NCBI GenBank assembly: GCA_965218095.1
Contig: OZ244587.1
Location: forward strand, 4,736,001-4,800,000
Reading direction: 5' to 3'
From: Candidatus Poribacteria bacterium
Lineage (GTDB): Bacteria > Poribacteria > WGA-4E > PCPOR2b
DNA length: 64,000 bases
A program made the translations under genes and the position numbers. The first letter of the stretch is position 1; every line of letters begins with the position of its first letter. Positions 21,043 to 53,142 of this stretch are shown here, piece by piece. A model generated the notes under the pieces. That model worked only from the letters and a program-made list of their open reading frames with translations. It had not been told where the DNA came from and searched no databases.

Positions 21043-21993
21043 ATGATGAAACGGATTCTACTCTGCACGGCCGGAGTGTTACGCTACTGCATAGGTATTT
21101 TTTTGGTCACAGCCATTTTTCTAGCTTCTCCAGCATCAGAATTGATGGCGCAGACACGCCACAAGACTTCGGGAGTTCCCACGCTCAAGGAGACAAAGAC
21201 ATTTCTCATCTATGCTAAGAAGGGAAATTTCAAGGCCTTCGATCTCGCGAGCGGAAAGCTTCTCGAAAACACGGAAGCTAAGGATTTCTTCAACGGCGAA
21301 TTGCTATTTATAATCACCGGCCCCAACAGCGCAATTCTTTCGGCTAATACTGGTATAGCGGATGTTGCGTTAGTCAGAGATAAACAGTCGCTTACGTTTA
21401 TTGAAACCACACCCACGGGAAACAAGCACATTATGATTATTGAAGATGAGTGGGATGTGAAGGAAGGTGGGTTCAAATTTACCTATACACGTAACATTGG
21501 AGGCAACGAAGAACTGTCGCGAACTCTCAGATCTCTCTATAGCGGAATTGCTAAACCGGCAGGACAGTATAAGAGTTCACGGATATTACGTGAAGCAAGC
21601 CCATCTCTTCAGAGGACAAAGATATTTCTCATCTATGCTAAGAAAGGAAACTACAAGTCCTTCGATCTTGCGAGCGGAAAGCTTCTCGAAAACACGGAAG
21701 CTAAGGATTTCTTCAACGGCGAATTGCAGTATACAATCACTGGTCCCAACAGCGCAATTTTTTCTGGAAACGCTGGTTCGGAGGATGTGGAACTAGTCAA
21801 AGATGAAAGGTCGCTTACGTTTATTGAAACCACGCTCTCCGGAAGCAAGCACATTATGATTATTGAAGATAAGTGGGATGCAAAAGAAAAGGGGTTCAAG
21901 TTTACCTATATCCGGAACATTGAGGACCGGATCCTTTTGGGTAAACTTCTCCGATCAATTTACAGCGGCATTGCCAAACCAGCAGGACGGTAA
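21043..21993 (+). CDS. Secreted hypothetical protein with two tandem domains (141-aa period)
   Basis: AAGGAG RBS; signal-like N-terminus; TKxFLIYAKKGN...SIYSGIAKPAG repeated with a 423-nt period. Confidence 0.8.
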   Translation: MMKRILLCTAGVLRYCIGIFLVTAIFLASPASELMAQTRHKTSGVPTLKETKTFLIYAKKGNFKAFDLASGKLLENTEAKDFFNGELLFIITGPNSAILSANTGIADVALVRDKQSLTFIETTPTGNKHIMIIEDEWDVKEGGFKFTYTRNIGGNEELSRTLRSLYSGIAKPAGQYKSSRILREASPSLQRTKIFLIYAKKGNYKSFDLASGKLLENTEAKDFFNGELQYTITGPNSAIFSGNAGSEDVELVKDERSLTFIETTLSGSKHIMIIEDKWDAKEKGFKFTYIRNIEDRILLGKLLRSIYSGIAKPAGR

Positions 21994-34064: not shown

Positions 34065-35003
34065 ATGATGGCGACACAAAAAAGGAAGGCCTCACTTCAG
34101 AACGCACTTCGTGGGCGTTTTGCGAAAAAAGGGTCTGCAGAACTAAAGTCGGATTTAAAAGGGTTGTTTGATACGTTGAGTGGTTATGAGCTTGTGGATG
34201 CGGTTATCGGGCGTGTGCAGCGTTATGCGGTGGAGGCATCCGGTAAGACGGTAGATCACGATTTCAGTCGGATGGAATTGTATGAAGCAGACGAGATTAA
34301 AAGGGGAATCCGTGATGAGTTGGTTTGGCACGTTTCGTCCTTTGTCTCAGATGTGCATCGGGAGTTTATCGTCCAGTGTCATGCGTGGGGGGGGGCTACT
34401 TCCGAAGCGGCTTTGGAGTTGATGAAGACAGACAAGGCGATAAATCGATTGGCGCAAGAGGACGCGATGGGTTGGAACGAACTTCGAGAAACGTTGATTC
34501 ATCGGTTGGCGTATCTGAAGCCGGGTTCGTCTCGGTGGCCTGAAAAGAAGTACGGCTTGGCCTGGCGTGAAGCACGGGAGGAGTATAAACAGGCGTTGAG
34601 TGATATTCCGTTCACGTCTCGGGTGGAGCAGGTTGCGCTTTTAGCCAAACATGCTGAGCGAATTAACTATGAGCTGGATAATAGAATACATTCCGTGAAA
34701 GCTTTGCAAATGTTGACGAATTCGTTGGTAAAGACGGTAGAGAGTTTGCGGAAACTGTCGGCGGTTGATGAACAACAGATACCTGCGAATTTGTCTGCGC
34801 CTCAGCTTGTTGGGGTTCTGGAGCGGCTGACGCTTGCGCTGAGGGCGCCTGAGCAGAAGGCGATTGGCGGTGGGGCTGAGGAACTTGTTGGGGTTCTGGA
34901 GCGGTTAACGCTTGCGTTGAGGGCGCCTGAGCAGAAGGTGATTGGCAGTGGGGCGGAGGCTGTGCCTGCGGAGGCGGGTGGTGACGTGGGCGAGCCTGAG
35001 TGA
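34065..35003 (+). CDS. Hypothetical protein with a DUF2280-like (phage-related) central region and a 26-aa C-terminal duplication
   Basis: GGAGG RBS; REFIVQCHA...AWREAREEY...DIPF pattern; LVGVLERLTLALRAPEQK twice (78-bp period, 34806 and 34884). Confidence 0.6.
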   Translation: MMATQKRKASLQNALRGRFAKKGSAELKSDLKGLFDTLSGYELVDAVIGRVQRYAVEASGKTVDHDFSRMELYEADEIKRGIRDELVWHVSSFVSDVHREFIVQCHAWGGATSEAALELMKTDKAINRLAQEDAMGWNELRETLIHRLAYLKPGSSRWPEKKYGLAWREAREEYKQALSDIPFTSRVEQVALLAKHAERINYELDNRIHSVKALQMLTNSLVKTVESLRKLSAVDEQQIPANLSAPQLVGVLERLTLALRAPEQKAIGGGAEELVGVLERLTLALRAPEQKVIGSGAEAVPAEAGGDVGEPE

Positions 35004-36676: not shown

Positions 36677-36705
36677 TTGACCAAAAGGGCCGGTTCTGCT
36701 ACCAT
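36677..36705 (+). promoter_or_regulatory. Promoter of the mini-CRISPR RNA
   Basis: TTGACC-17bp-TACCAT with extended TG. Confidence 0.6.
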
Positions 36706-36797
36706 AATGGCGAGAATCTCGATTACGAGATTGAAATATGGTTGTGTTATATTTTGCCCTAATTGTATGATAAGAATCTCGATTGCGAGATTGAAAT
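36701..36797 (+). CRISPR. Mini-CRISPR / crRNA-like RNA: two degenerate repeats around a 23-nt spacer
   Basis: AGAATCTCGATTACGAGATTGAAAT and ATGATAAGAATCTCGATTGCGAGATTGAAAT match the 3' part of the array repeat with the hairpin intact; spacer ATGGTTGTGTTATATTTTGCCCT (36738-36760). Confidence 0.9.
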
Positions 36798-36805
36798 ATT
36801 TTTAT

Positions 36806-36861
36806 TTGACTTGTTGGGTTGTCTATGTTATAATTAGTTTATTGTGATGGTAGTGTTATAT
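36806..36861 (+). promoter_or_regulatory. Strong sigma70-type promoter followed by the mini-CRISPR target site
   Basis: TTGACT-17bp-TGnTATAAT (36806-36834); GTG PAM at 36844-36846 then ATGGTAGTGTTATAT (36847-36861), 14/15 identical to the spacer 5' end. Confidence 0.8.
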
Positions 36862-36893
36862 ACTCAATTAGAATAAAAATACAAGGAAATCAA

Positions 36894-37133
36894 ATGCAAC
36901 CCTTAAATCCATCTCTGGAAATTCAAGCACATTTAAAAAAAATAGATCGGGAGCAGTCTTATATTGAAGATCGGCATTATGAGATTGGTCAGACTGTAAA
37001 TCTTTTAGAACGCGAGAATGCAGATTTACTTGATCGTTATAGCGATCTGGATTCGGCAAAGGAAATTTGCTACAGTGCACTCGCAGGCGACCCCGTCGCG
37101 ATTTGGGCGGAACTTCAGCGGTTCGGACTTTAA
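36894..37133 (+). CDS. Small acidic hypothetical protein (79 aa), candidate Cascade-repressed toxin
   Basis: AAGGA RBS, ATG start and its own consensus promoter; no family recognised. Confidence 0.7.
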   Translation: MQPLNPSLEIQAHLKKIDREQSYIEDRHYEIGQTVNLLERENADLLDRYSDLDSAKEICYSALAGDPVAIWAELQRFGL

Positions 37134-37221
37134 GATTGTGGGAAATGCGTCTGGAGAAACCTAGTTTTTCGGCAAAACTGGGAATGGGGCAATCAATTAC
37201 ATTCTTAAACAGACGAACCGC

Positions 37222-37438: not shown

Positions 37439-39532
37439 GTGATTAAACTTAGAGTCAAACCTGTATACTCTCGAAAGGCGGAAGTTGTTCCCATCAAGAA
37501 CGGCCCCGAAGGGCTTGAGTTTCGACAACACCAAGTCGAAACCTATAAAGCGATTCAGGATCCAGATGTAGATGTGATCTTCAATAGGGCAATGACCGGT
37601 GATGGAAAAAGTTTAGCCGCGTATCTTCCCGCGCTGACGGAAGGCAGGTCAATCCTAGCTATGTACCCAACTAACGAATTAATCAAAGATCAAGAACGAC
37701 AAGTGCAGGGATACTGCCAGTGGTTTGAGCAAAATATTGCCTGCGACAAGATGTTTGGGGAACGGCTGTACAAACTTCGTGCAGAATTGACAGATCTACG
37801 CGGGCAAAAAGCCGCGATTGAACTTTTGGCTCTAAAGAATCCAATTCTACTCACAAATCCGGATATCTTTAATCTAATCGCCAATTTTCACTATCTGAAC
37901 CCCGAATATGAAAACCCAGATCAGTTGGTACAGCACATTATCGACTATTATGATCTGTTTATCTTCGACGAGTTTCATATCTATGATGTCTCGCAGGTCA
38001 TCTCTGTTCTGACAACCATGTTGTATTTCATCGAGCAGGGACGTGGCAAATTCAATCAGAAAAAGTTCGTCTTTCTCTCTGCGACACCGAGCCCACTCCT
38101 GCTGGATTGTTTGGAGAAGGTGAATCTCCGATACAAAATCATCGAAGGGTGTTATCAATTCGATGAACTGGATTCAGCGAATTGGGACGGAATCTGCGCG
38201 CCATTCGACTTACATTTCCACGCAACGGGTCGCCGTACCGAAGAATGGGTCGAAAACCATTATCAGCAAATCGCCGAGTGGTTTGCCGATAATCCGAATT
38301 CACGTGGGGCAATTATTGTCAACTCGGTTGCAGCGGCGAAACGAATTTCCTTGTTTCTCAAAGAACGAAACGTGGCGGGGGATTTTCCTCTGAACGTTGG
38401 CGAAAATACTGGACTCAGCAGTCGGGAAGAACGACGTTTTGCTCTCCACGAAAGTGACCTGCTCATCGGGACCTCAACGGTAGATGTCGGTGTTGACTTC
38501 AAAATCAACTTTCTTGTCTTTGAGGCGATAGACGCAGGTTCGTGGATTCAAAGGCTTGGACGGCTTGGTCGGCATTCAGAATACGCAACACCTGACGGGG
38601 CGGTTATGAAGTTTGACCGTTTCGTTGCTCACTCGCTTCTGCCCAAATACGTCTACGAACGGATTGAGCAAGTCGTCACGTCGGATTCAGAAATTGACAA
38701 AGGGACTCTGATTGACCTCATGCGAAGTGAGGATGAGAATAAACGGATTTTCTCTCCCATCAACGATTTTCGCAACTATAAAAAGTCTTGGGGTTGGTTG
38801 CACGCTTCGCATATCATCAACACTTTGGGGCATCCACGATTGCGCGAAAACTATGCACCCCAGCGAGAAAAACTCACGAAGGTCTATACCGACATTTTCG
38901 AGGCGGATATCGAAACGCGAGCAACAAAATGGTATTTCGCTGTTAAAAATAAACGGCCGGAAATCATTGATTCTGCTGTGATTCAATTTCGTGGTGAGAC
39001 ACCTTTCACATGTGGAATCATTGATGAAACAGATGGCGAGGTGAAAGACTACAATCTCCTGTGGACGTTAAGCAACGCCGAAGTCGAATTCATGGACAAG
39101 ACGGATTTCATGCAAGAAATCCAATCGCGGGGAATTCCACCCCGTCAGTTTCGGTCCGTTGGCATCTATCTCCGATTACATGGATATCGCTCAGAGCGAG
39201 AGCGTTTTCACCTGACTCAGAGCCGCAAGATTGGGAAGCAGTTTACTGACGAAGATTACCGTCAGTTGCATACGCTCAAGGGGTTTGAGATTGATGGTAA
39301 TTTTCCAGAAATTAACAAAATCAATCGTTGGTTGCGCATAAAACCGCATCTTTGCCTTGTTTGTAAAGAGCCGTTGGGTGATTTACGGCGGCTGTTACGT
39401 CTGCCGATGATGTTTTCCATTTTCTCGCTACTTGATCGGGATGGTAACGAATTCAGCGTCGTATTTTCAAAGGACGCGCTCTTGTTACATTCTCAGCCCT
39501 ACATTTGGGCGAAGGAGGATTCTAATGGCTGA
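37439..39532 (+). CDS. cas3: Type I-D CRISPR helicase Cas3' (no HD domain)
   Basis: AMTGDGKS, YPTNELIKDQ, DEFH, SAT, TSTVDVGVDF, QRLGRLGRH; GGAGG RBS with GTG start. Confidence 0.95.
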   Translation: MIKLRVKPVYSRKAEVVPIKNGPEGLEFRQHQVETYKAIQDPDVDVIFNRAMTGDGKSLAAYLPALTEGRSILAMYPTNELIKDQERQVQGYCQWFEQNIACDKMFGERLYKLRAELTDLRGQKAAIELLALKNPILLTNPDIFNLIANFHYLNPEYENPDQLVQHIIDYYDLFIFDEFHIYDVSQVISVLTTMLYFIEQGRGKFNQKKFVFLSATPSPLLLDCLEKVNLRYKIIEGCYQFDELDSANWDGICAPFDLHFHATGRRTEEWVENHYQQIAEWFADNPNSRGAIIVNSVAAAKRISLFLKERNVAGDFPLNVGENTGLSSREERRFALHESDLLIGTSTVDVGVDFKINFLVFEAIDAGSWIQRLGRLGRHSEYATPDGAVMKFDRFVAHSLLPKYVYERIEQVVTSDSEIDKGTLIDLMRSEDENKRIFSPINDFRNYKKSWGWLHASHIINTLGHPRLRENYAPQREKLTKVYTDIFEADIETRATKWYFAVKNKRPEIIDSAVIQFRGETPFTCGIIDETDGEVKDYNLLWTLSNAEVEFMDKTDFMQEIQSRGIPPRQFRSVGIYLRLHGYRSERERFHLTQSRKIGKQFTDEDYRQLHTLKGFEIDGNFPEINKINRWLRIKPHLCLVCKEPLGDLRRLLRLPMMFSIFSLLDRDGNEFSVVFSKDALLLHSQPYIWAKEDSNG

Positions 39533-42494
39533 ACAACCTCAACCTGATTTCCTGGGGATTTCAGAGAGTTCCCAAGAAACACAAGAAATCCACGCACAAA
39601 TCGCATTGCTGAAAAACGCCGTTGACCCAGACGATTTTGTCTTGACAGACTACGTCGAGACAGTTGTACCGCAGATGCTGGACGAATACACGCTCCGTTC
39701 AGCGAAAGGAAGCACGGTTTGGGCGTCCAATCACGACCAAAGTATGCTCGCGCATATTCTCAACGGCATCTTTCCAACGCTCACGATTGTGCGAATTGCC
39801 GGGCAACCGTTGAGTGAACTAGACGAGCGGCTCTACCTGATTGCCTATTCGTTTCATGACATTGACAAACTCATAGACATCCGTGATTTGAGTGTCTCTG
39901 ATGCGGAGAAGTCTGAGCAATTTTACAGCTACCTTGATGAATGGGTTGCGAAACTCCATTTTGATAAATTCTGTCCAGATTACGAAGATTACCGCGGAGA
40001 CATTGCATATCTCATTCTCAACACGCAGAAGAAATACGGTGCAAACCTCAATTTGCAGAGTTACGATTCGCGCCTACCGGGGCGACGACGCCAGTTTTTG
40101 CGGGAGATGTGTACCGCATCAGACCTTATCGCCTATTTTCTGAAGAATCCGAGTGGATTTCGAGAACAGGCGAATGCCCGTGAATCTCTCGTCAAGCTCA
40201 GCGGTGGGAAACTCGAATTCGCCTATCACAAACTCGCTGAGAATCGCGGTATGATTACGAATGTCATCAACAACGCCTTGCTCAGAATCCTGCGTGACCG
40301 ATTGGGATGGAAACCGTTTCTCTTCTTCCCAACAGGTGTCACATATTTGCGAAAGTGGTTAAGCGAAGAGAGCAACTTGCCGACACAGGATGAAATTGCC
40401 GAGGATGTTGAAAAACAGCTCATTGCATACTGCGCCGGGCGATTAGAGGCGAACCTCAACGGATTTACGCGAGATGGGAAGGGATTTAAGTTTCCCGATT
40501 ACTATTACGATTTCTTCCAACTTCCTGAACTACTCCAACTCATTCGCAAAGGATGCTTCAGGATACTGCACGAGAATAAGTCACCCTCTGCTGGGAAGCG
40601 ACTACAGAAGCTGCTTCAACTTCAGAAAAAAGGTGATATTCCCCCTGATGTCAATCTCCATTTTGAAGAGGATATGCGCGTTGACCAACTTGCGGAATAT
40701 CTCTACGAAATCGAGAAACACGTTGGCGCAATAACGAGCCGTGAGGCGGTATCTTCTGAGATTATCACGATTTTGGATACGCAAGAATATCAGACTGACT
40801 TTGAAGCGATTCCACGCGATAATCGGGCAGGCGGTGTGCCGCTACATTGGTATTTCCTCGCAGGCAAATACTTGATGAAAAATCTTGGGCTTGATGCGAA
40901 TCAGATGGAAGATTTGTTTGCAGACATTGCCAATCAGGTTGTGACAACATTCGAGGGAGAAATTGAACATCGCGAGGTGGAGAAGGAAGGGTTCAGTGTA
41001 CTCCGCGAATATGTTCGAGAAATTGTCGATATCAATGGACACAGTGAGATCGAACGCGACTTTGAAGCGGAATTGGACCGATACACAAACACGAAGAAAA
41101 AAGGGCGTGGCTCGAATGCGGGTTGTTCTCTCTGTTCGTCAACGTTTGAAACAAGCAAGCAACGAGACACGTCGGTCATCTTCGCCAACCAAGTCTACAG
41201 TAACAAGAACTTGCTCAACTCCTCATTGCTCGTCCGCGGCATCTGTGAATTGTGCGAGGTCGAAATGATGCTCCGACAAATCATGATACGCTCGAAATTG
41301 CGGCTCGTGGGCGGTGGGTATGATGACGTCAAAATCAAGTGGCTGTATCTCTATCCGAGCTACTTTTTCACGACAGAGACAGCGAAGTTTGTCGGCAACG
41401 CATATCGGCAGATGAAGAACTTGAATTTCTTTGACGTGCGGAAAGCGTTACACAAAGGAATGGCAGTGAGGGATTTCATCAATTTAGATGAAATGGTCAT
41501 TGACACCGAAATTCCGAACCCTGACGATGATTATCTGCTCAAGATGGAGTTCGACACCAACGACCTTGCAACCTTCTACTTCTGCGGAATCCCGACGCTC
41601 GGCAAAAGCCCCACCGATACAGAATCGTGGGCATTACCGACTTTTCTCGGTCTGCTTATGCCATTAGTGTTCAATGCGAAGGTCGTTGTGACCGAGTCGC
41701 AGATTCCACTCTATCACAGCAGCGAGGAGTGGAAAGAGACAGTTGTTCTCAATGCCCCCCATCCGTTTGTGAAGCACATTCTAGGCACAGTCGAAATCCG
41801 CATTGACCAGATCGAAGCGGCTTTGAAGAAGATTGTTGCTGCCTACGATATGAATATTGATGTATTCCAAAAGGATGGTAAACCGCAGTGGCAACACCTC
41901 AACGAAATTGGGCGGAACATTGACACAGACCCACTTTACGTTTTTCATTATCTCGAAGCGTTTCGCCGGAAGCAGGGTTGGGACAGTTTCCCCAAACCCC
42001 GTGATGGCGAATCATCAATCCCGGAACGATACATCCAAACTTATCACCATATTGGAGGTGACAAGATGAGTCTCATTGAAGAAGTCGCCAAACGGTGCTT
42101 CAAATTTTACGGACCCGATAACTTCAAGCCGAACAGTGTCTTGAAGGTGATTACGCTGGTTGAAGACGTGATTGTCAACAGCGAGTCGAAAATTAACGCA
42201 ACTGATCTAAAATACCAAGCCATTGGCGAGGTAAGTAACCTGATGCAACGGATTCGGTCAAGTCGTGCCCAAGGCTACGCTCGGCTCCACCCTAGAGATG
42301 AAGAACCATCAGCTATTCACGAATTTGTTGAATATTTTTATAACGTGGTGTTTGCTGAATATTACGATGGCGAGCGCGGTATGCTTCGTCAACGTCGCAA
42401 CCGCTTTAATGCGGGTGTCAACGCATGGTATCAGGTAAACTGGCGTCAATTCCAAACGAAAAAGGCAAAGGAGGAAAACAATGCCGACAATTGA
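39525..42494 (+). CDS. cas10d: Type I-D large subunit Cas10d/Csc3 with N-terminal HD nuclease
   Basis: DQSMLAHILNG...FHDIDK, CSLC/CELC zinc motif, LYLYPSYFFT; GGAGG RBS before ATG 39525. Confidence 0.93.
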   Translation: MAEQPQPDFLGISESSQETQEIHAQIALLKNAVDPDDFVLTDYVETVVPQMLDEYTLRSAKGSTVWASNHDQSMLAHILNGIFPTLTIVRIAGQPLSELDERLYLIAYSFHDIDKLIDIRDLSVSDAEKSEQFYSYLDEWVAKLHFDKFCPDYEDYRGDIAYLILNTQKKYGANLNLQSYDSRLPGRRRQFLREMCTASDLIAYFLKNPSGFREQANARESLVKLSGGKLEFAYHKLAENRGMITNVINNALLRILRDRLGWKPFLFFPTGVTYLRKWLSEESNLPTQDEIAEDVEKQLIAYCAGRLEANLNGFTRDGKGFKFPDYYYDFFQLPELLQLIRKGCFRILHENKSPSAGKRLQKLLQLQKKGDIPPDVNLHFEEDMRVDQLAEYLYEIEKHVGAITSREAVSSEIITILDTQEYQTDFEAIPRDNRAGGVPLHWYFLAGKYLMKNLGLDANQMEDLFADIANQVVTTFEGEIEHREVEKEGFSVLREYVREIVDINGHSEIERDFEAELDRYTNTKKKGRGSNAGCSLCSSTFETSKQRDTSVIFANQVYSNKNLLNSSLLVRGICELCEVEMMLRQIMIRSKLRLVGGGYDDVKIKWLYLYPSYFFTTETAKFVGNAYRQMKNLNFFDVRKALHKGMAVRDFINLDEMVIDTEIPNPDDDYLLKMEFDTNDLATFYFCGIPTLGKSPTDTESWALPTFLGLLMPLVFNAKVVVTESQIPLYHSSEEWKETVVLNAPHPFVKHILGTVEIRIDQIEAALKKIVAAYDMNIDVFQKDGKPQWQHLNEIGRNIDTDPLYVFHYLEAFRRKQGWDSFPKPRDGESSIPERYIQTYHHIGGDKMSLIEEVAKRCFKFYGPDNFKPNSVLKVITLVEDVIVNSESKINATDLKYQAIGEVSNLMQRIRSSRAQGYARLHPRDEEPSAIHEFVEYFYNVVFAEYYDGERGMLRQRRNRFNAGVNAWYQVNWRQFQTKKAKEENNADN
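42066..42494 (+). CDS. cas11d: Cas11d small subunit, translated in-frame from inside cas10d (142 aa)
   Basis: GGAGGTG at 42054-42060, 5 nt before in-frame ATG 42066. Confidence 0.75.
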   Translation: MSLIEEVAKRCFKFYGPDNFKPNSVLKVITLVEDVIVNSESKINATDLKYQAIGEVSNLMQRIRSSRAQGYARLHPRDEEPSAIHEFVEYFYNVVFAEYYDGERGMLRQRRNRFNAGVNAWYQVNWRQFQTKKAKEENNADN

Positions 42495-43488
42495 AATTCC
42501 GAAAGAGCTCGTTCCCGAAAATTATTTTTTGAATCGAATTCCGAAAGCCCCAACGGGGCGTTATGCACATCTGATTGTGGTTCGTGAAACAGAGTCGTTT
42601 CCCGTTTTTCAAACAGATGGCACGCTCAACATTGCCAAGGTCAAGGCAGGTTTGCAAAATGGCGATTCGCTCATACGCCTTGCGATGTTCAAGCGGAAAC
42701 AGAGTTCGCCAGAGCGACTTACTGGACGCGAATTGCTGAGAAGCACAGGCATTACACAGAATGAAGATGCCGGCGAAGATAACTACTGTGACTACAACGA
42801 GCAGTTCTGTACGACCTGCCCCGACTGCGTTTACTACGGGTTCGCAATCGGTGATTCTGGCTCTGAAAAATCAAAGGTGTATGTTGATACCGCCTATTCG
42901 ATTACAGGCTACGATGAGTCACATCAGCAGTTTTCATTCAACGCGCTGTATGAAAAAGGGAACATGAGTCAGCATGGCGAAGTTCGCTCTAGCTTTGGCG
43001 AACAAGACCACATCGTACCACAAGTTTTCTTTCCCTCTATCATTACCATTAAGGATGTGATGGTCAACAGTTTTGCCTACGTTTTGAACAACGTGCTACG
43101 AACGAAACGTTACGGCGCGCAGACGACACGAACCGGACGACTTGCCAATCATATCGTCGGAGCGGTATTTGCTGATGGTGAGATCTTTTCAAATCTTAAA
43201 TTCACGCAAGCCATCCACGATGCGTTGGGCAACGACAAGGACGAAACGCCGTTGAATCCTGAGAAAGTTTTTCAAACGGCTCGATTAACCACATCCGAGC
43301 TCTTGAAGGATGACGGTGTGAACTATCATCTACTTGAGGAAGAAAACCTGCAAGAGTTACTTGGCATCGTCAAGTCCGCGACAACGGATGAAGAAAAACT
43401 TCATCAACTTTTGCAGGAGGCAAACGCCGAGACGCAGGAATACTCCGAACGAGTGATTCAAAAGGCATCAAACAAAAAGAAAAAGTAG
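42481..43488 (+). CDS. cas7: Type I-D Cas7/Csc2
   Basis: FKRKQSSPERLTGRELLR, CPDCVYYGFAIG, RYGAQTTRTG. Confidence 0.95.
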   Translation: MPTIEIPKELVPENYFLNRIPKAPTGRYAHLIVVRETESFPVFQTDGTLNIAKVKAGLQNGDSLIRLAMFKRKQSSPERLTGRELLRSTGITQNEDAGEDNYCDYNEQFCTTCPDCVYYGFAIGDSGSEKSKVYVDTAYSITGYDESHQQFSFNALYEKGNMSQHGEVRSSFGEQDHIVPQVFFPSIITIKDVMVNSFAYVLNNVLRTKRYGAQTTRTGRLANHIVGAVFADGEIFSNLKFTQAIHDALGNDKDETPLNPEKVFQTARLTTSELLKDDGVNYHLLEEENLQELLGIVKSATTDEEKLHQLLQEANAETQEYSERVIQKASNKKKK

Positions 43489-43497
43489 GAGGGACCG

Positions 43498-44193
43498 ATG
43501 CAAGTCACGAGATGCCGCCTTATCCTGCACGACTCTCTCTACTACGCGACTCGTGAGATGGGGCGACTGTACGAGACGGAGAAGGTCATCCACAATTGGG
43601 CGTTGACGTATGCGCTCGGTTTGATTCAAAAGCCGTATAGATCATTTAACAGCGTTCCAACTTATCAGGAGGACCTCACACCAATCAATGCGGCAGGTGT
43701 CTATGTGACACCTGCCAAACCGATTCATTATGATTATATAATCAGTACCTTCAAATTCGCGGACAATCGACATCGCCCGTTTTCAACTGTCAGCAATACG
43801 CGAAAAAGGGAGTTGAAGATTACTGTGACGAACAAACCATCTTTCGGCAAGGCGAAGGAACTTGCGCCGGAGAGCGAGTTTGAATTTTTCATCATGGGTA
43901 AATTGCCCGAACGGGTCCCGAAGTGGATCCGGTTGGGATTGTGGATGAGCAAAGCAAAAATCGAAATCAAAGATCGTCAGGACTTGACCGTTCAACGGGG
44001 TCAATTTACATGTCCTCACTTGTTGAATCCGCTAGATCTTTCAATTCGGCCGCAACTCTATGATCTGATCTCGATGCCGCCGGTGAGTCTTCTTCAAAAT
44101 GTGACTTTGACAGGCGAGTACGTTGCGTTTCAGAGAGAGCAAGAAACAGTTTGTTTACCAGCCACAATGAGATATTTTGCAAACTCAACTTAG
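43498..44193 (+). CDS. cas5: Type I-D Cas5/Csc1
   Basis: LHDSLYYATREMGRLYET..IHNWALTYALG, KELAPES, WIRLGLWMSKA. Confidence 0.95.
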   Translation: MQVTRCRLILHDSLYYATREMGRLYETEKVIHNWALTYALGLIQKPYRSFNSVPTYQEDLTPINAAGVYVTPAKPIHYDYIISTFKFADNRHRPFSTVSNTRKRELKITVTNKPSFGKAKELAPESEFEFFIMGKLPERVPKWIRLGLWMSKAKIEIKDRQDLTVQRGQFTCPHLLNPLDLSIRPQLYDLISMPPVSLLQNVTLTGEYVAFQREQETVCLPATMRYFANST

Positions 44194-44204
44194 AAAAGTT
44201 CACC

Positions 44205-45050
44205 ATGCCCATCAGCACCGTTATCTACCTCATCCCCCCCGAAGATGTCACACTTCGTCCGACGATGGGGCATCACGCGCACGCTGCGTTCCTATCGCTG
44301 TTGCGAATTGGCAATCCGGAAAAAGCGGAAGAAATTCACGCCACATCCGCGCAGAAACCGTTTACTGTTTCGCCGCTGATTGGTAAAGGCGAACGACGTG
44401 GGGATTTCCTGCACATCCGCGCTGGAACGGAATGCTGGCTCCGCTTTACGTTCCTCGACGATGAACTCTTCGCCTACTTCGGCAACGCCTTCTTGACACA
44501 GCAACTGCCGTCCATCCGCATCGGACAGGCGATGTTTCAACTCAGCCGATTGAATTCATCTGGGACAGAGGGTAAAGATTGGAGCGGCGCAAGAACCTAC
44601 GAAGACCTAATTGAATCTGCGCGGACAGACACTCGGATTCAGATGCGATTCCATTCGCCGACCGCCTTTCGGGAACTGACTCCGCACGGGCGAAAAACAC
44701 GCAATCAAGCAAATATTGACCTGCAACGTTGCTATCAGAGTTGGGTCAACAAATGGAATGCCTTCGGACCGATGCAGATTGATAAGCAACGCCTTCTCGA
44801 TTTCGTGGTCGGTCACGCCGGGCTGACCACAGTTGAGGCCAAGAGCCGGATGCTCGATTTCGGCAGACATAAGGCGGTCGGATTTGTTGGAAATTGTGCA
44901 TACCAATTTTTCGTGAAGCGTCAATCCGATGATGAGGGTAACATTGAGATGTTACGTTTGGTGAACCTGCTCGCCGATTTCGCCTTTTACTGTGGCACCG
45001 GCTACAAAACGACGATGGGGATGGGACAGACGCGGCGACGACAATCCTGA
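44205..45050 (+). CDS. cas6: CRISPR endoribonuclease Cas6
   Basis: KPFTVSPL, FHSPTAF and Gly-rich loop GTGYKTTMGMG; start placed at ATG 44205. Confidence 0.95.
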   Translation: MPISTVIYLIPPEDVTLRPTMGHHAHAAFLSLLRIGNPEKAEEIHATSAQKPFTVSPLIGKGERRGDFLHIRAGTECWLRFTFLDDELFAYFGNAFLTQQLPSIRIGQAMFQLSRLNSSGTEGKDWSGARTYEDLIESARTDTRIQMRFHSPTAFRELTPHGRKTRNQANIDLQRCYQSWVNKWNAFGPMQIDKQRLLDFVVGHAGLTTVEAKSRMLDFGRHKAVGFVGNCAYQFFVKRQSDDEGNIEMLRLVNLLADFAFYCGTGYKTTMGMGQTRRRQS

Positions 45051-45410
45051 TCACGAGATTGACATCAGATCGACATCAAGTGCCTCGGCAATCGCCTTCA
45101 ACGTTTTGACGGAACCGGACTTTCGTCCTGTCTCAATCCCCGCTAAATATGCACGTTGAATGCCGGTTTTATCCGCAAGTTGCTTCTGTGTGAGTCCCCG
45201 GTACTCGCGATACACCTTGATCGGATTCTCCTCATTGAGAATCAGCCGATTAATCACCTCGCCGGGGAAGGTTTCCTCATCAATGGCTTTCGCCCTACGA
45301 AAATCACGAATGTCTCTAAGCATCTCCGCATCTGCAAGGAGTTGGTCGTAATGCTCTATCGGTACAAGGGCAAATTTCTGACCTTCTATTTCTACTGTTT
45401 CAAGGCTCAT
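45051..45410 (-). CDS. XRE-family HTH antitoxin (HigA-like)
   Basis: NPIKVYREYRGLTQKQLADKTGI.RAYLAGIETG; start overlaps the toxin stop codon. Confidence 0.88.
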   Translation of the reverse strand: MSLETVEIEGQKFALVPIEHYDQLLADAEMLRDIRDFRRAKAIDEETFPGEVINRLILNEENPIKVYREYRGLTQKQLADKTGIQRAYLAGIETGRKSGSVKTLKAIAEALDVDLMSIS

Positions 45411-45664
45411 TTATACACACCGCCTCTCGGTCCAATTTTTACGATTTCAAGTACAAAGGTGTCATCATGGAGTTCATACAGCACTCGCCAGTCACCCACT
45501 CTGAGCCGGTATCCCGGCTCACCTGTTAGGCGTGTTATATTATTGTTCGGCGCGTAAGGATTCTCAGCAAGTTGGTTAATCTTCCCAACAACGGTTTTCG
45601 CTACATTACTGGGCATCCGCTGGAGCATCTTCATCGCGCTTGCTCGATATCGAATCTGATACAT
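45407..45664 (-). CDS. RelE/ParE-family toxin (85 aa)
   Basis: YRLRVGDWRVLY, IGPRGGVYK; AAGGGG RBS before ATG 45664. Confidence 0.9.
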   Translation of the reverse strand: MYQIRYRASAMKMLQRMPSNVAKTVVGKINQLAENPYAPNNNITRLTGEPGYRLRVGDWRVLYELHDDTFVLEIVKIGPRGGVYK

Positions 45665-45749
45665 GATGCCCCTTATTGTAGCTAAAAGCAACCTGAAAAT
45701 CAAGCATTTCCGTTACACACCCCGTTCCACAAATCTGGAGTATTAAACC

Positions 45750-47432
45750 ATGTCCGAAACCTACATACCGCTTTCGCAGATAAACACCTATGTCTTCTGC
45801 CCGCGCCGATTCTACTACGAATCCGTTGAGGGCCATCAGGTGATTAACGAGCATGTCGAAGAGGGGAAGATCAAACACGCCCGCGTTGATACGGAGATGA
45901 AAGGTCGCAACGAGCGCGGGGTGAAGGTCTCGCGTCGACAATACCTCGCCTCTGATGCACTTGGTGTCTCCGGTTATCTCGATCTAATTGAAGAGAAGGA
46001 CGGTGTGCCGTATCCGGTCGAATACAAGAAAGCCGGCACCGGCAACTGGCTCAACGATCAGGTTCAACTCTGTCTACAAGGGATGCTAATCGAAGAGAGC
46101 ACTGGCATTGAGGCGCCTCACGGCTATATCTACTACATCGGCTCCAAACGCCGCCGAAAGGTGGTCTTTGATGACGAACTGCGGCAGACCAGTCTCGACT
46201 TTGTCTCTAACGCCGAATCGCTGTTGCAGACAAGAAAGATTCCCGAACCGGTCCACGACAACCGGTGTAACGGGTGTAGCGTCCGAGGCATCTGTCTTCC
46301 AGACGAGGTTGCCTATCTCCATGAATTAGACGATCGACCAAAACGCATCAAACCTGTGCTTGGGATCGATAACGTGCTGTATGTCGATGAAGCGGGCTGT
46401 ATACTCAAAAAAACTGGGGAACGCCTGCTCGTTGTCAAAGAGGGAGAAACCATCCGCGACATTCCGCTCATCCATCTCGGCCAGGTTGTGCTTTGTGGCA
46501 ACATCAGTGTGACGACCCCGGTGATGCAAACCCTGCTCAACGAGGGGATTCCGGTTGTTTACCTGTCTGCGTACGGACGCTATCAGGGAACGCTTACGCC
46601 GAAAATCTCCCGAAACTCACTCCTGCGCGTCGCTCAACATCGGATCGCGGATGACCCGGAAAAGTGCCTCGCGCTCGCGAAAGCGTTTGTACATGGCAAA
46701 ATCACGAACATGCGGATGATGCTCCAGCGTCGGAAATGGCGGAACAGAACGACCAACGACAAAGATCTCGATTGCGAAGTTGAAACAAACGGAATCGAAA
46801 CTGAGGACAGGCACGCCGACATTTTATCGAGCATTAAGGGACTCGCTGCGATGCGCCGGAAGATTCCCAAAGCGGAACGGCTCCCTGAACTGCTTGGTAT
46901 TGAAGGTAACGCCTCTGCCGCGTATTTCCAATCGTTTTCCGCCATGCTCAAACCAGAAATGGGATTTGACTTTGAACGCCGCTCCCGCCGACCACCCGCG
47001 GATGCGACCAATTCGTTGCTTAGTTTTGCCTACTCGCTATTGACAGCGGATCTGATTTCCGCCATCCAGCTTGTCGGACTCGACCCATACGTGGGGTTCT
47101 TCCATCAACAGAATTACGGGCGTCCCTGCCTCGCATTAGACCTCATGGAGGAGTTCCGTCCGATCATCGCCGATTCAGTTGTGATTACGCTCATCAACAA
47201 ACGGCAGATTAAACCGGATGACTTCACCCAATCGCACGGCGGCTGGTTCCTCAAAGACGCCGCCCGCAAGCGGTTCTACGCCGCCTACGAGGGACGCAAA
47301 AATGAGACGATTACACACCCTGTCTTCAAGTACAAAATCAACTTTCGCCGTGCAGTCGAATTACAGGTACGATTGCTTGCCAAGTGTCTAATGGGAGAGA
47401 TTGAAACCTACACGCCGCTGACAGTTCGATAG
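45750..47432 (+). CDS. cas1: Cas4-Cas1 fusion protein
   Basis: Cas4 part: FCPRRFY, VEYKK, QLCLQ, CNGCSVRGIC. Cas1 part: GIEG, NSLLSFAY, GFFH, DLMEEFR. Confidence 0.95.
   Translation: MSETYIPLSQINTYVFCPRRFYYESVEGHQVINEHVEEGKIKHARVDTEMKGRNERGVKVSRRQYLASDALGVSGYLDLIEEKDGVPYPVEYKKAGTGNWLNDQVQLCLQGMLIEESTGIEAPHGYIYYIGSKRRRKVVFDDELRQTSLDFVSNAESLLQTRKIPEPVHDNRCNGCSVRGICLPDEVAYLHELDDRPKRIKPVLGIDNVLYVDEAGCILKKTGERLLVVKEGETIRDIPLIHLGQVVLCGNISVTTPVMQTLLNEGIPVVYLSAYGRYQGTLTPKISRNSLLRVAQHRIADDPEKCLALAKAFVHGKITNMRMMLQRRKWRNRTTNDKDLDCEVETNGIETEDRHADILSSIKGLAAMRRKIPKAERLPELLGIEGNASAAYFQSFSAMLKPEMGFDFERRSRRPPADATNSLLSFAYSLLTADLISAIQLVGLDPYVGFFHQQNYGRPCLALDLMEEFRPIIADSVVITLINKRQIKPDDFTQSHGGWFLKDAARKRFYAAYEGRKNETITHPVFKYKINFRRAVELQVRLLAKCLMGEIETYTPLTVR
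46750..46786 (+). repeat. Degenerate full-length CRISPR repeat inside the cas1 coding sequence
   Basis: CGACCAACGACAAAGATCTCGATTGCGAAGTTGAAAC is 29/37 identical, ungapped, to the array consensus; 31/37 if trailer-variant bases C8 and G25 are counted. Confidence 0.8.
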
Positions 47433-47744
47433 CGGTTGTAGGGGCAATGCCTTGTGCTTGCCCATAGTAGAGGTGAGATTGAAACCTACACGCCGCTGAC
47501 AGTTCGATAGCGGTTGTAGGGGCAATGCCTTGTGCTTGCCCATAGTAGAGGTGAGATTGAAACCTACGCGCCACTGACAGTTCGATAGCGGTTGTAGGGG
47601 CAATGCCTTGTGCTTGCCCATAGTAGAGGTGAGATTGAAACCTACGCGCCACTGACGGTTCGATAGCGGTTGTAGGGGCAATGCCTTGTGCTTGCCCATA
47701 GTAGAGGTGAGATTGAAACCTACGCGCCACTGACGGTTCAATAG
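47397..47744 (+). repeat. 78-bp tandem repeat (4 full copies + 1 partial): cas1 3' end plus a REP palindrome
   Basis: Units start at 47397, 47475, 47553, 47631 and 47709; each full unit contains GTAGGGGCAATGCCTTGTGCTTGCCC. Confidence 0.95.
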
Positions 47745-47763
47745 GCTGTCGGAGGAGAAACCG

Positions 47764-48036
47764 ATGTTTTACGCAGTTGCCTATGATATTACCAATGACC
47801 GGCGGCGAAACGCAGTTGCCAAAATTTTGCTAGATTTCGGCACACGCATCCAATATAGTATATTTGAGTGCAACACCGATCGACGCGCTTACCTCCGGCT
47901 ACAAGATCGGCTTCAGGATGCCATCAATCCCAAGGAGGATGCTGTGACTTTCTATCATCTCTGCCGGTCCTGCGAGAAGGGGATCGAACGGATTGGTATC
48001 AAAAAAGGAATTGACAAAGCCGCGTATATCGTTTAG
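47764..48036 (+). CDS. cas2: CRISPR-associated endonuclease Cas2
   Basis: YAVAYDI.NDRRR, RIQYSIFEC, LCRSC; GGAGGAG RBS. Confidence 0.96.
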   Translation: MFYAVAYDITNDRRRNAVAKILLDFGTRIQYSIFECNTDRRAYLRLQDRLQDAINPKEDAVTFYHLCRSCEKGIERIGIKKGIDKAAYIV

Positions 48037-48268
48037 CATCCAAATCGGGCATAAGGGCATTCGGGTTCGGAAAACTCAACTGTCAACCGCTGAGCTAACA
48101 AAAAGCGAAGTGTCCGACAGGATCGGTGAAGAGACTGTTATGATAGGGGTTTGACGATGTACCTTTTTGAAAATCGCCCATTTCAACTGGATCAACAACT
48201 GAAACATCCAAGTCTGACAGAAAGCAGTGTTCAAAATGCTTGCTGTTACTGGCTTTCAAATGGTCGCT
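48037..48268 (+). promoter_or_regulatory. CRISPR leader
   Basis: Non-coding region between cas2 and the first perfect repeat; degenerate repeats lie at the opposite end of the array. Confidence 0.75.
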
Positions 48269-51200
48269 CGATCAATGATAAGAATCTCGATTACGAGATT
48301 GAAACGCAAATATCGTGAAAATGGCGGGGTTGTATGGGTGGACGATCAATGATAAGAATCTCGATTACGAGATTGAAACATGTCAACGAAACGGTACAAC
48401 AACTCGCCGATGATGCGATCAATGATAAGAATCTCGATTACGAGATTGAAACGTAAAAGGTGGGAGATGCCCCCAGCTGGGTTGCTGGGCGATCAATGAT
48501 AAGAATCTCGATTACGAGATTGAAACTACATTAATAATGAGCCGCTCCGCGACTTTGGTGGTGACGATCAATGATAAGAATCTCGATTACGAGATTGAAA
48601 CAAATATCATCGGGATGATCTACCAATTTATCCGCAATCGATCAATGATAAGAATCTCGATTACGAGATTGAAACCAACGCTCGGGTTGCGACATCGACA
48701 CTCCCAAACCCTCGATCAATGATAAGAATCTCGATTACGAGATTGAAACGCATCAGTAATGATATACTCCGACGAAGCGAACCTGTCCGATCAATGATAA
48801 GAATCTCGATTACGAGATTGAAACTACATTATGATAGCAATGGCAACCACAACGGCTATACGATCAATGATAAGAATCTCGATTACGAGATTGAAACTCA
48901 CCGGTGCTAACGACATCCGACGGAATACCCGGCTCGATCAATGATAAGAATCTCGATTACGAGATTGAAACCAGGTGAGGGAATCGCTTTCAGATCGCGA
49001 GATACGCACGATCAATGATAAGAATCTCGATTACGAGATTGAAACATAATCCTCAGCATCATACGCTTCAAACGGTTTAATCGATCAATGATAAGAATCT
49101 CGATTACGAGATTGAAACGGAACGCCGGCGCTGCATACAGTGTTTAATCGCGCCTTCGATCAATGATAAGAATCTCGATTACGAGATTGAAACACTGCCA
49201 TGCTTTCCAGAGAGTCATAGTGCGGTCGCCGATCAATGATAAGAATCTCGATTACGAGATTGAAACTGAGACAACCTGTACTTTTCAATCCTCCAGTGAA
49301 CACCGATCAATGATAAGAATCTCGATTACGAGATTGAAACGACAAAGAGCGGATCAGAACTCTCCTCAGTATCCCCGATCAATGATAAGAATCTCGATTA
49401 CGAGATTGAAACGACAGCCTCCGAGAAGAAGCCCGACGACTCAACATCACCCCCGCGATCAATGATAAGAATCTCGATTACGAGATTGAAACCTGGGTGG
49501 AACGGCGCAATGGGATAGCGACGAATTTCGACGATCAATGATAAGAATCTCGATTACGAGATTGAAACACATGGCATGGAAACTCGGGCTGATGGGAATC
49601 TGGGATCGATCAATGATAAGAATCTCGATTACGAGATTGAAACAAGTCCAAAATCGTCCCGTCCAGCAACAACACCTCTAAAACGATCAATGATAAGAAT
49701 CTCGATTACGAGATTGAAACAGAGATTCGCTGGGAATTAGGCGCATCCTCATCGAGGCGATCAATGATAAGAATCTCGATTACGAGATTGAAACTACCAC
49801 GACCGCGAAGGGCGCCCCCGACAGTATCTTCCGATCAATGATAAGAATCTCGATTACGAGATTGAAACCAAGTACCACTTCGATGTTGCCACTCACCGTC
49901 GCGGTGTTCGATCAATGATAAGAATCTCGATTACGAGATTGAAACCAGCAAGTCAGGGTACGATTTGCGAGTCTGCCCGATGACGATCAATGATAAGAAT
50001 CTCGATTACGAGATTGAAACAAAACGGTAGGACCAACAACGAAATTTGGACAGGCAGCTCGATCAATGATAAGAATCTCGATTACGAGATTGAAACTGTA
50101 AACGATAATGACGATCTTGAAGTCGGCACACAATTCGATCAATGATAAGAATCTCGATTACGAGATTGAAACAGCTATAACCAAGACCGCATCCTGATTC
50201 CGATGGAGATTCGATCAATGATAAGAATCTCGATTACGAGATTGAAACAAGTCCAAAATCGTCCCGTCCAGCAACAACACCTCTAAAACGATCAATGATA
50301 AGAATCTCGATTACGAGATTGAAACGACTGAGTTCTATCGAGAATACCCGTCAACGCCGGAGGACGATCAATGATAAGAATCTCGATTACGAGATTGAAA
50401 CTCCCCGTCGTCGCCGCAGACAGCGCACCCGACGCCCCGATCAATGATAAGAATCTCGATTACGAGATTGAAACGCGAAACGTGCGATTTCTCTGCCGAA
50501 GCGGATGGAGATACGATCAATGATAAGAATCTCGATTACGAGATTGAAACCAGCGAATATCTTGGGACCCATCCTCTGCTGATCGTATCATCGATCAATG
50601 ATAAGAATCTCGATTACGAGATTGAAACGAAGGGCACACCATTGATGTACAATCGATAATCGAACTCGATCAATGATAAGAATCTCGATTACGAGATTGA
50701 AACCACTGGGGCATCCATCAGTACCGATTGAGATATACGAATCGATCAATGATAAGAATCTCGATTACGAGATTGAAACTTGTGATCCACCTGCGCCCAT
50801 CGCGCTATCTGCCTGTCGATCAATGATAAGAATCTCGATTACGAGATTGAAACACAGGCACGATTTCAGGAAAGACGGTCATCCCGTTTGACGATCAATG
50901 ATAAGAATCTCGATTACGAGATTGAAACGAGATTCAACAGATCCCGCGCTGCACCCCGCCGTCCCGACGATCAATGATAAGAATCTCGATTACGAGATTG
51001 AAACTACCATGCCAGAAATAGCGGTTCAAAGTTGCTTTCGCGATCAATGATAAGAATCTCGATTACGAGATTGAAACACAGACGCATCATCGGTATCGGG
51101 GTCAACCACCGCTTCCGATCAATGATAAGAATCTCGATTACGAGATTGAAACTTCTATAATCCAAATAGTTCAAAAATACTCAGTGTTCGATCAATGATA

Positions 51201-53142
51201 AGAATCTCGATTACGAGATTGAAACCGTTGAAAGGTGGGAATATGGCAAAGATTCAATTAGGCGATCAATGATAAGAATCTCGATTACGAGATTGAAACA
51301 ACATCATCAAACGGCAGGATAAATTCACCCGATGTTGCGATCAATGATAAGAATCTCGATTACGAGATTGAAACTCAAGGCATTTACTCCTTCGAGGGAT
51401 GGCGGGCTGAGGAGCGATCAATGATAAGAATCTCGATTACGAGATTGAAACCAGTGGCTGCTTCGTTGCGCGGATACCACCGCTTGCGATCAATGATAAG
51501 AATCTCGATTACGAGATTGAAACGCGGCGGTGAGTTACTTTCCCTTGTTCAATCCGGCTACCCGATCAATGATAAGAATCTCGATTACGAGATTGAAACC
51601 GGAACTGGATCAACTGACTGAGCAGGGTAAGCAGAACGATCAATGATAAGAATCTCGATTACGAGATTGAAACTAACGTCTCGCGTCTCATGTTCCGCGT
51701 CTGCCGGTGCGATCAATGATAAGAATCTCGATTACGAGATTGAAACTGGTGCGCAAGTGCTGGGTGCGCGTGCGGGTCGTGCCAAGCGATCAATGATAAG
51801 AATCTCGATTACGAGATTGAAACAGCCGTTGGTATCACGTCTTTGTGGGTTTCGTCAACGATCAATGATAAGAATCTCGATTACGAGATTGAAACGAAAC
51901 CAATAATCGTGTACCATTTTTGATACGATTCGCCACGATCAATGATAAGAATCTCGATTACGAGATTGAAACTCTGAAGATTTCAGCGTTATCAATCAAA
52001 TACGCTTTACGATCAATGATAAGAATCTCGATTACGAGATTGAAACAGAAATGACTTCCCATTCGGAACGTGGCAAGTTTATACGATCAACGATAAGACA
52101 CTCGATTGCGAGATTGAAACAAACCCAAACCAGAGGCATGGATAAAGTGTGGATAACGATCAACGATAAGAATCTCGATTACGAGATTGAAACATGAATG
52201 AACACCACCAGAAGATTTGTTGATGGCTGTACGATCAACGATAAGAATCTCGATTACGAGATTGAAGCTGCTGAGCTCTCACCATGTGGAAGTCGGCGTG
52301 AAGCGATCAACGATAAGACACTCGATTACGAGATTGAAACTTCCCACACCTCTCGTGGCAGTGTCTGAGGTTCAGGGAACGATCAACGATAAGACACTCG
52401 ATTGCGAGATTGAAACGGGGGTGGTATTGTATTTGTTGCGTGAGTCCGTGTTTTCGATCAACGATAAGAATCTCGATTACGAGATTGAAACCCGCAGCCG
52501 GCGGAGCGGAGAATACAGCGCATTCAACGATCAATGATAAGAATCTCGATTACGAGATTGAAACTTATCAGACAGTACCACTTCAAGCCCATTTAATCTG
52601 CGATCAACGATAAGAATCTCGATTACGAGATTGAAACAGCGGTGCAAACCGATTAAGGCGCCAGGCCTCGAACAACGATCAACGATAAGAATCTCAATTA
52701 CGAGATTGAAACATGGTAGAGGGTAAGAAAGCTCACCAGATGGAGATCGCCGCCGATCAACGATAAGACACTCGATTGCGAGATTGAAACAGTTTCGATT
52801 TGACTCCCATCAGTTTGACTCCTTTTTTTTGTGCATGCACAAGAAAATTCGCCGCACGATCAACGATAAGATTCTCGATTACGAGATTGAAACGTGGAAA
52901 ACAGATGAAATACAAAAAGCCATCGGAAACTCCCGATGCTTCTGTTGAAGTCGGCGTTGAAAAAGATGCTGTTGATGGATTCTCTTACGGTGTTCTGGAG
53001 CGAGTCACGGTATTGAGTCCATGCGGACCTCGGATCAGGGAATCGATACCTGTTGCCTCCCACGACGTAAGAAATGAAGCGCGAGTTGCGGCGGGGGAAA
53101 CAGAACAACCTACGATAAGACTCTCGATTACGAGATTGAAAC
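48269..53142 (+). CRISPR. CRISPR array, 37-bp repeat CGATCAATGATAAGAATCTCGATTACGAGATTGAAAC, about 63 repeats / 62 spacers
   Basis: Manual count; spacers mostly 35-43 nt; hairpin AATCTCG-ATTA-CGAGATT; 3' ATTGAAAC; variant repeats from 52084 onward. Confidence 0.98.

Follow-up and report, generated by a model that had tools for sequence, protein, structure and literature searches.

A decayed CRISPR repeat in frame within the cas4-cas1 gene of a Poribacteria type I-D locus

Results

The type I-D locus and its surroundings

The window, the whole 64,000-nt stretch of DNA analyzed here, covers positions 4736001-4800000 of a 6.35-Mb single-contig genome from a sponge symbiont. The closest relatives of its cas1 gene were all labelled Candidatus Poribacteria or uncultured bacterium. 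A type I-D operon lies on the forward strand, and the features relevant to this study are listed below in window coordinates.

37439-48036, + strand: type I-D operon, in the order cas3', cas10d/csc3, csc2, csc1, cas6, cas4-cas1 and cas2, then leader and array
44151..45050, + strand: cas6 (TIGR01877, 61.2 bits against a cut-off of 58.65), an endoribonuclease that would act on repeat RNA
45750..47432, + strand: cas4-cas1 fusion gene of the type I-D operon, 560 aa (P0001), Pfam Cas_Cas4 and Cas_Cas1
46750..46786, + strand: decayed 37-nt CRISPR repeat, here called the fossil, which runs in the sense direction and in the reading frame of cas1
46752..46796, + strand: 45-nt (15-codon) insertion TNDKDLDCEVETNGI, Cas4-Cas1 residues 335-349, with boundaries ambiguous by 2-3 nt
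46787..46801, + strand: tail AAACGGAATC and cas1's own GAAAC, a possible weak second resemblance to the 3' end of the repeat
47764..48036, + strand: cas2 (TIGR01573)
48269..53142, + strand: CRISPR array of 63 repeats (37 nt each, consensus CGATCAATGATAAGAATCTCGATTACGAGATTGAAAC), to whose repeat family the fossil traces back

The whole P0001 protein scored 621.5 bits against the NCBIfam model NF049935 (Cas4g/Cas1g), for which the curated cut-off is 560, and it was therefore assigned to that family. In the array, 52 of the 63 repeats were identical, degenerate variants lay at the far (trailer) end, and the spacers were for the most part 35-41 nt long.

Several other elements were recorded in and around the locus. 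Between cas6 and cas4-cas1 is a gap of 700 nt (45051-45749), the sole long ORF of which (45156-45557) matched no NCBIfam model; the corresponding gap in relatives contained GGAAGG low-complexity sequence and REP-like repeats. Tandem duplications were also found at 34806-34959 (78 nt x 2, within the ORF 34065-35003) and at 21192-21992 (423 nt x 1.9). Outside the window, a second CRISPR-Cas locus (G000:C1:3421096-3432537) encodes cas1 and cas4 as separate genes and has a ~8.5-kb array.

Upstream of cas3', at 36701-36869, two degenerate repeats, with 28 and 30 of 37 positions matching, form a mini-array with a 23-nt spacer. The spacer matched positions 36847-36869 at 16 of 23 nt, and 14 of its first 15 nt agreed, with the mismatch at position 6. 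The matched site is preceded by GTG, which we take to be a type I-D PAM. A promoter-like site, TTGACT-N17-TATAAT (36806-36834), lies shortly before the matched site, and a small ORF (36895-37134) follows it. By analogy with the elements described for type I-D loci, the mini-array resembles a crRNA-like repressor of the CreA/CreR type that would act on a cargo gene.

The repeat-like segment of cas1 and its match to the array

The original prediction was that the 37-mer at 46750-46786 aligns to the array consensus CGATCAATGATAAGAATCTCGATTACGAGATTGAAAC without gaps on the sense strand at 29 of 37 positions, and recounting gave the same value. It had also given a count of 31/37 when C8 and G25 were allowed. 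Both bases do occur in trailer-end repeats, for example at 52084, but no single real repeat reaches 31/37. The best individual array repeat, a C8 variant at 52157, agreed with the fossil at 30/37, and accepting any base seen at each position among all 63 repeats gave a generous bound of 32/37. The reading frame and the encoded peptide, TNDKDLDCEVET, were correct as predicted, as was the peptide INDKTLDCEIET obtained when a trailer repeat variant was translated by hand in the frame of the fossil.

The chance of such a match, a calculation called for in the original prediction, was computed with a Poisson-binomial model using the base composition of the genome. At 29/37 or better, 1.9e-4 matches were expected in the whole genome on both strands, 1.9e-6 in the window and 2.5e-8 in cas1. 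When the codons of cas1 were shuffled 5000 times, no shuffle reached 29 (maximum 26, mean 19.7). Across the whole genome outside the array, four sites matched the repeat at 26 or more of 37 positions, versus 0.12 expected: two in the mini-array upstream of cas3', the fossil itself, and one at genome position 615384. The fossil thus resembles the array's repeat family over its full length, ungapped, and beyond chance.

The last of these sites lies outside the window, on the minus strand at G000:C1:615341-615622. Its match to the repeat is 28/37 and falls within a 94-codon open frame that reads the repeat in the same frame as the fossil (...DQKLDYEIEKK...); no Pfam match was found for this frame.

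A lineage-specific insertion at a helical-hairpin tip

An alignment of Cas1 homologs, proposed with the original prediction as a check, confirmed an insertion at this place: the 560-aa and 545-aa classes of the protein differ by one 15-column gap. The locus set comprised 72 loci (the window and 71 from species-representative genomes), and in 67 of them the loop segment was readable. The insertion was present in 10 of these 67 Poribacteria cas1 loci and absent from 57. Opposite the insertion, the solved Cas4/Cas1 fusion 7MI4 shows a gap of 15 residues, and when 97 diverse Cas4-Cas1 representatives (31-89% identity) were aligned, 96-97 of them left the insert columns empty. Between the invariant residues R327 and G383, the window protein has a linker of 55 aa versus a median of 30.5 aa, a length equalled in one of the 97 representatives. 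The insertion is thus specific to a lineage, being absent at the same position from orthologs and from the wider family.

A structure model made from the alignment with the 97 representatives had a mean pLDDT of 93 and a pTM of 0.92. It contained a helix at 303-337, a coil at 338-347 and a second helix at 348-374, so the insertion lengthens the tip of a helical hairpin; pLDDT fell to 59-65 only at the insertion. The polar loop between Cas1 helices that had been predicted was therefore placed by a confident model at a helix-loop-helix tip. A first structure run with 18 close sequences gave a mean pLDDT of 48 and was kept only for the coil at 334-351. PDB entry 7MI4 (title: PAM-PAM prespacer bound Cas4/Cas1/Cas2 complex) has the same architecture and fold as the window's fusion (E-value 6.9e-112; TM 0.87 for the model against 7MI4_A). 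It lacks the 15-residue insertion; the window's fusion, by contrast, works with a type I-D effector operon.

A single origin and the direction of transfer

In a maximum-likelihood tree of cas1 DNA, the 10 insert-bearing genes formed one clade (SH-aLRT 99), and the minimum number of changes was one. With all carriers in one clade a single gain suffices, and on the gene tree the insertion has a single origin. The tree was obtained from a quick IQ-TREE search with midpoint rooting, on which the branch-length argument made below rests. It included 67 of the 72 rows; L063, L069, L088, L090 and L091 were left out, as no long open frame with the anchor motif was found in them. The insert columns, being filled in few rows, were dropped from the tree automatically. 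The carriers fall in two genome families (f1 and f3), from which it follows that the locus has probably moved between lineages.

The 48 distinct repeat consensus sequences of the relatives, insert-less loci included, all belong to the same repeat family. Because arrays of this family are carried by the insert-less loci, the deepest branches among them, the repeat is older than the insertion, and the direction was from repeat to cas1. The 5' part of the fossil (CGACCAAC) is of the CGATCAA(C/T) subtype, as in the repeats of its own and the sister clade; the repeats of distant loci are of the CTTGAAAT subtype. The original prediction had named as evidence against capture the same peptide in Cas1 proteins paired with unrelated repeats. 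What the relatives have is the shared repeat family without the peptide, and the reading stands on this point.

Decay of the captured copy

The nine other carrier copies matched the repeat at 17-25 of 37 positions in the same register, versus ~9 expected by chance. At three of the eight mismatched positions of the window fossil (4, 14 and 29) the repeat base is retained in other copies, and two further mismatches, C8 and G25, are states of old trailer-end repeats. Over the 45 within-clade pairs, nucleotide identity was 0.64 in the insert versus 0.65 at third codon positions elsewhere in the gene; amino-acid identity was 0.44 versus 0.93 elsewhere. Of 546 windows of 15 residues, the insert was the fourth least conserved. 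A few of its residues are fairly conserved in the clade (D341 0.8, E345 0.9, T346 0.8, I349 0.9), which makes the drift near-neutral rather than strictly neutral.

The window gene is on the earliest and shortest branch, at 0.049 from the base of the clade versus 0.21-0.27 for the others, which accounts for its copy being the best preserved. A hand estimate, taking third positions to change at ~2.5x the gene average, gave ~4-9 neutral mismatches for the window copy and ~14-17 for the others. The observed mismatches to the repeat were 8 in the window copy and 12-20 in the others.

RNA features of the fossil

The original prediction of a weakened hairpin was borne out by folding: the repeat forms a 7-bp stem at -7.5 kcal/mol, versus -3.5 kcal/mol in another register for the fossil (z 0.08 relative to shuffles), which therefore has no stable repeat hairpin. 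Among 49 distinct functional repeats, the core pairs (positions 18-21 with 26-29) were kept in 49/49, with compensatory changes in 16, and positions 27 and 29-37 were invariant, including the 3' handle ATTGAAAC. The window fossil retains three of the four core stem pairs (19-21/26-28) and seven of the eight handle bases, so that it may still bind Cas6 to some degree. It has a C18-A29 mismatch, carries A29/G30 instead of the invariant G29 and A30, and reads GTTGAAAC in place of the handle. With neither the complete core stem nor the invariant handle, it is a degenerate copy and no functional member of the repeat family. Judging by the 8-nt 5' handles of crRNAs, G29 and A30 presumably flank the Cas6 cut. 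Pairing was present in 62.9% of cells across the 10 homologous copies, a value equalled or exceeded in 427 of 500 shuffles, so that the structure is not conserved; pairs 17/30 and 19/28 were broken in 8 of the 10.

Three metatranscriptome runs (7% of sampled words) yielded contigs in three places: 45750-45851, where the sequence is 90% alike and from a relative, 47103-47302, and 48062-48284. These contigs show neither ends nor strand and leave the fossil uncovered. Contigs of two further runs do cover it, and among the differences listed for them no change falls within 46750-46801. A contig join in run X4 (47423>47658, skipping 3 x 78 nt) was considered as copy-number variation and set aside as a possible assembler collapse.

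Route of entry and other insertions in cas1 genes

No flanking target duplication of repeat length was found around 46750-46801. The 45-nt insertion therefore lacks the classic integrase scar and does not qualify as an off-target scar as it stands. The repeat part is flanked by cas1's own ...CG and GAAAC..., and the 545-aa class reads ...AC(N) GAAAC... there. These are bases that cas1 may already have had, which fits microhomology-guided copying from the array. Two candidate routes are microhomology-templated copying from the array 1.5 kb downstream and off-target action of the Cas1-Cas2 integrase on array-derived DNA. The 8-10 nt that follow the repeat part may be accompanying spacer sequence, as originally suggested; a search of the window for the source of this 10-nt tail gave eight matches at three or fewer mismatches, none of them informative.

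Independent insertions, laid out as spacer integration would leave them, were observed in related cas1 genes. In a 545-class gene (L074:4048-4156), an exact 37-nt direct duplication surrounds a 35-nt insert; the total of 72 nt is in frame. The insert is unique in its genome, and this is the cleanest signature of off-target spacer integration inside the integrase gene; an exact search of viral contigs with it gave 0 matches. In a partial metagenome cas1 (L103:738-850, 85% identical), an exact 40-nt duplication surrounds a 33-nt insert with a period of 73 and a frameshift, and the loop is longer than in the 560-aa class. This sequence was the only close relative from the metagenome scan, and the one examined among L101-L109. 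At L039:4021-4131, a second insertion of 75 nt lies inside the fossil loop, where a 39-nt piece is flanked by a duplication of 36 nt with 2 mismatches. This piece has a 32-nt palindromic core with 322 copies in its genome (REP- or MITE-like), and none of eight other copies of the palindrome that were inspected had such a duplication.

In the window itself, 4.5 tandem units of 78 nt lie between cas1 and cas2 (47397-47744). Each unit consists of the last 36 nt of cas1, stop codon included, and a 42-nt insert with a GGGCAA...TTGCCC hairpin; it begins with GAGATTGAAAC at 47397, identical to the last 11 nt of the repeat. The 42-nt insert was found nowhere else in the genome save for two weak relatives. 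The units may have begun as an integrase-type scar and undergone amplification afterwards, or they may be REP-related.

A scan of the 72 loci for the duplication-insert-duplication pattern flagged 10. Inspection, which covered the flagged loci other than L084, L054 and L063, showed L033, L056, L080, L051 and L067 to be GGAAGG low-complexity sequence or REP-like repeats, and they were rejected as integration scars; the 78-nt units of the window were masked by the array filter. The same kind of scan over the whole genome returned 29 loci, which were mainly protein repeats and the two arrays, and such scars are thus not common in this genome.

Discussion

Weighing the explanations

The explanation that we consider likely is that the fossil is a repeat captured once, which has drifted near-neutrally and is now most likely an inert loop-coding sequence. 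An old repeat of the locus's own family entered cas4-cas1 within an in-frame insertion of 45 nt. This happened in the common ancestor of a small group of Poribacteria type I-D systems, after the repeat family had arisen. Of the two sense frames of the repeat that lack stops, one is read, and the acidic, polar peptide that it encodes sits where a helical hairpin of the Cas1 helical domain turns. This spot varies in length across Cas4-Cas1 proteins, so the insertion was tolerated there, and the sequence has afterwards drifted at a roughly neutral rate.

A rival reading is chance resemblance, or the derivation of the repeat family from this cas1 segment. Coding alone can make cas1 and the repeat somewhat alike: when translated, the repeat motif (E-I-E-T) resembles the Cas1 C-terminal GEIETY, and an exact 11-mer (GAGATTGAAAC) occurs at 47397. 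Given an expectation of 1.9e-4 per genome, the absence of any codon shuffle reaching 29 in 5000, and the presence of the repeat family without the insert at 57 of the 67 readable loci, deepest branches included, we regard both chance and the reverse direction as extremely improbable. It is also conceivable that recurrent gene conversion or template switching, with the array 1.5 kb downstream as donor, has maintained the likeness of the window copy to the repeat, given that this copy matches at 29/37 versus at most 25 in the nine relatives and that A12 and C18-T19-C20 are repeat-like in the window alone. Against this, the window gene is on the earliest and shortest branch (0.049 versus 0.21-0.27), and by hand parsimony each window-specific repeat-like state needs one change on the branch of 0.086 leading to the other nine. 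C8 and G25 are old trailer-end states and not those of the 52 identical repeats, so no recent conversion is seen. The 8 mismatches observed agree with the ~4-9 of the neutral hand estimate, and conversion is not needed; we judge it unlikely.

The original prediction was upheld in its proposal that an old repeat was captured into cas1 and tolerated as a loop, and not in its suggestion of a weak Cas6 site limiting cas1 mRNA. Such a site, which Cas6 would bind or cleave, could tune Cas1 or couple adaptation to the Cas6/crRNA load. The sense orientation does place the repeat strand in the cas1 mRNA, cas6 is encoded just upstream of cas4-cas1, and the window copy keeps pairs 19-21/26-28, with GTTGAAAC versus the handle ATTGAAAC. 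Yet the canonical hairpin is not its favoured fold, with an energy equal to that of shuffles, and the core pair 18/29, G29 and A30 are altered, all of which are kept in 49/49 functional repeats. The hairpin is kept inconsistently in the 10 copies, where pairing is no better than shuffled (427/500) and 17/30 and 19/28 are broken in eight, and the fossil drifts at about the synonymous rate. Repeat-like sequences were also reported as depleted in cas genes, in the portions drawn on here of a preprint by Shmakov et al. (2023). With the hairpin lost and both invariant bases at the presumed cut site changed, a Cas6 site has little probability beside a neutral fossil. The fossil is probably not a working regulatory site, and the loss of its Cas6 features may reflect mutation to escape Cas6 or neutral decay, both being compatible with the data. 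Since the repeat stem and the presumed Cas6 cut-site bases are gone, the captured repeat is most likely an inert loop-coding fossil today.

Relation to known systems

Repeat-like sequences at ectopic sites have been described before, as mini-arrays and regulators between genes, and the same large survey that reported their depletion in cas genes (Shmakov et al. 2023, bioRxiv 10.1101/2023.03.03.530964) describes them, in the portions drawn on here, as intergenic, often paired mini-arrays that act as crRNA-like regulators. Like those elements, the fossil is a degenerate repeat of its own locus, outside the array and inside a cas locus. Unlike them as so described, it is single, lies inside an ORF, is translated in frame and is not conserved as RNA.

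Off-target integration ("neo-CRISPR") is known from experiments in E. coli (Nivala, Shipman and Church 2018, Nat Microbiol), and in the passages of the literature drawn on here the evidence for it outside the laboratory is described as circumstantial. The fossil shares with it DNA inserted outside the array of a genome that has an active integrase, and the spacer-sized inserts with 37-40-nt duplications in the cas1 genes of L074 and L103 have its signature as given in those passages. The fossil differs in being a repeat and not a spacer, in an insertion length of 45 nt, and in having no repeat-length target duplication. Phage solitary repeat units, or RNA anti-CRISPRs (Camara-Wilpert et al. 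2023, Nature, PMC10651486), are likewise single array-less repeat copies. As characterized in the portions of that paper used here, they are phage-encoded, non-coding, intact mimics that bind Cas proteins; the fossil is host-encoded, coding and decayed. In a full-text literature search of a limited collection, we found no report of a CRISPR repeat inside a cas ORF. Ectopic repeats as such are already known; the one described here has turned into coding sequence of the integrase gene.

Significance for the Poribacteria family

The insertions at L074, L103 and L039 suggest that the integrase strikes its own gene, and together with the tandem units they make an integrase route for the fossil plausible, without proving it. 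We offer tentatively, as a possibility that we rate below even chances, that the cas1 of this Poribacteria family is a recurrent off-target of its own integrase and that the fossil is DNA from the array that was inserted in cis, then trimmed or resolved without the usual duplication. If so, natural genomes hold a record of an integrase that damages its own gene and now and then remodels it.

Natural evidence of off-target integration is rare, and the insertions in the related cas1 genes provide some. The fossil is a rare molecular fossil of modest functional weight, and its value is mainly that of a marker. Its history is dated by the gene tree as one gain followed by near-neutral decay, and it marks a permissive site in Cas1, the helical-hairpin tip at residues 335-349, which could accept engineered insertions. 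It shows that DNA from the array can escape into genes nearby and become exapted there as a loop.
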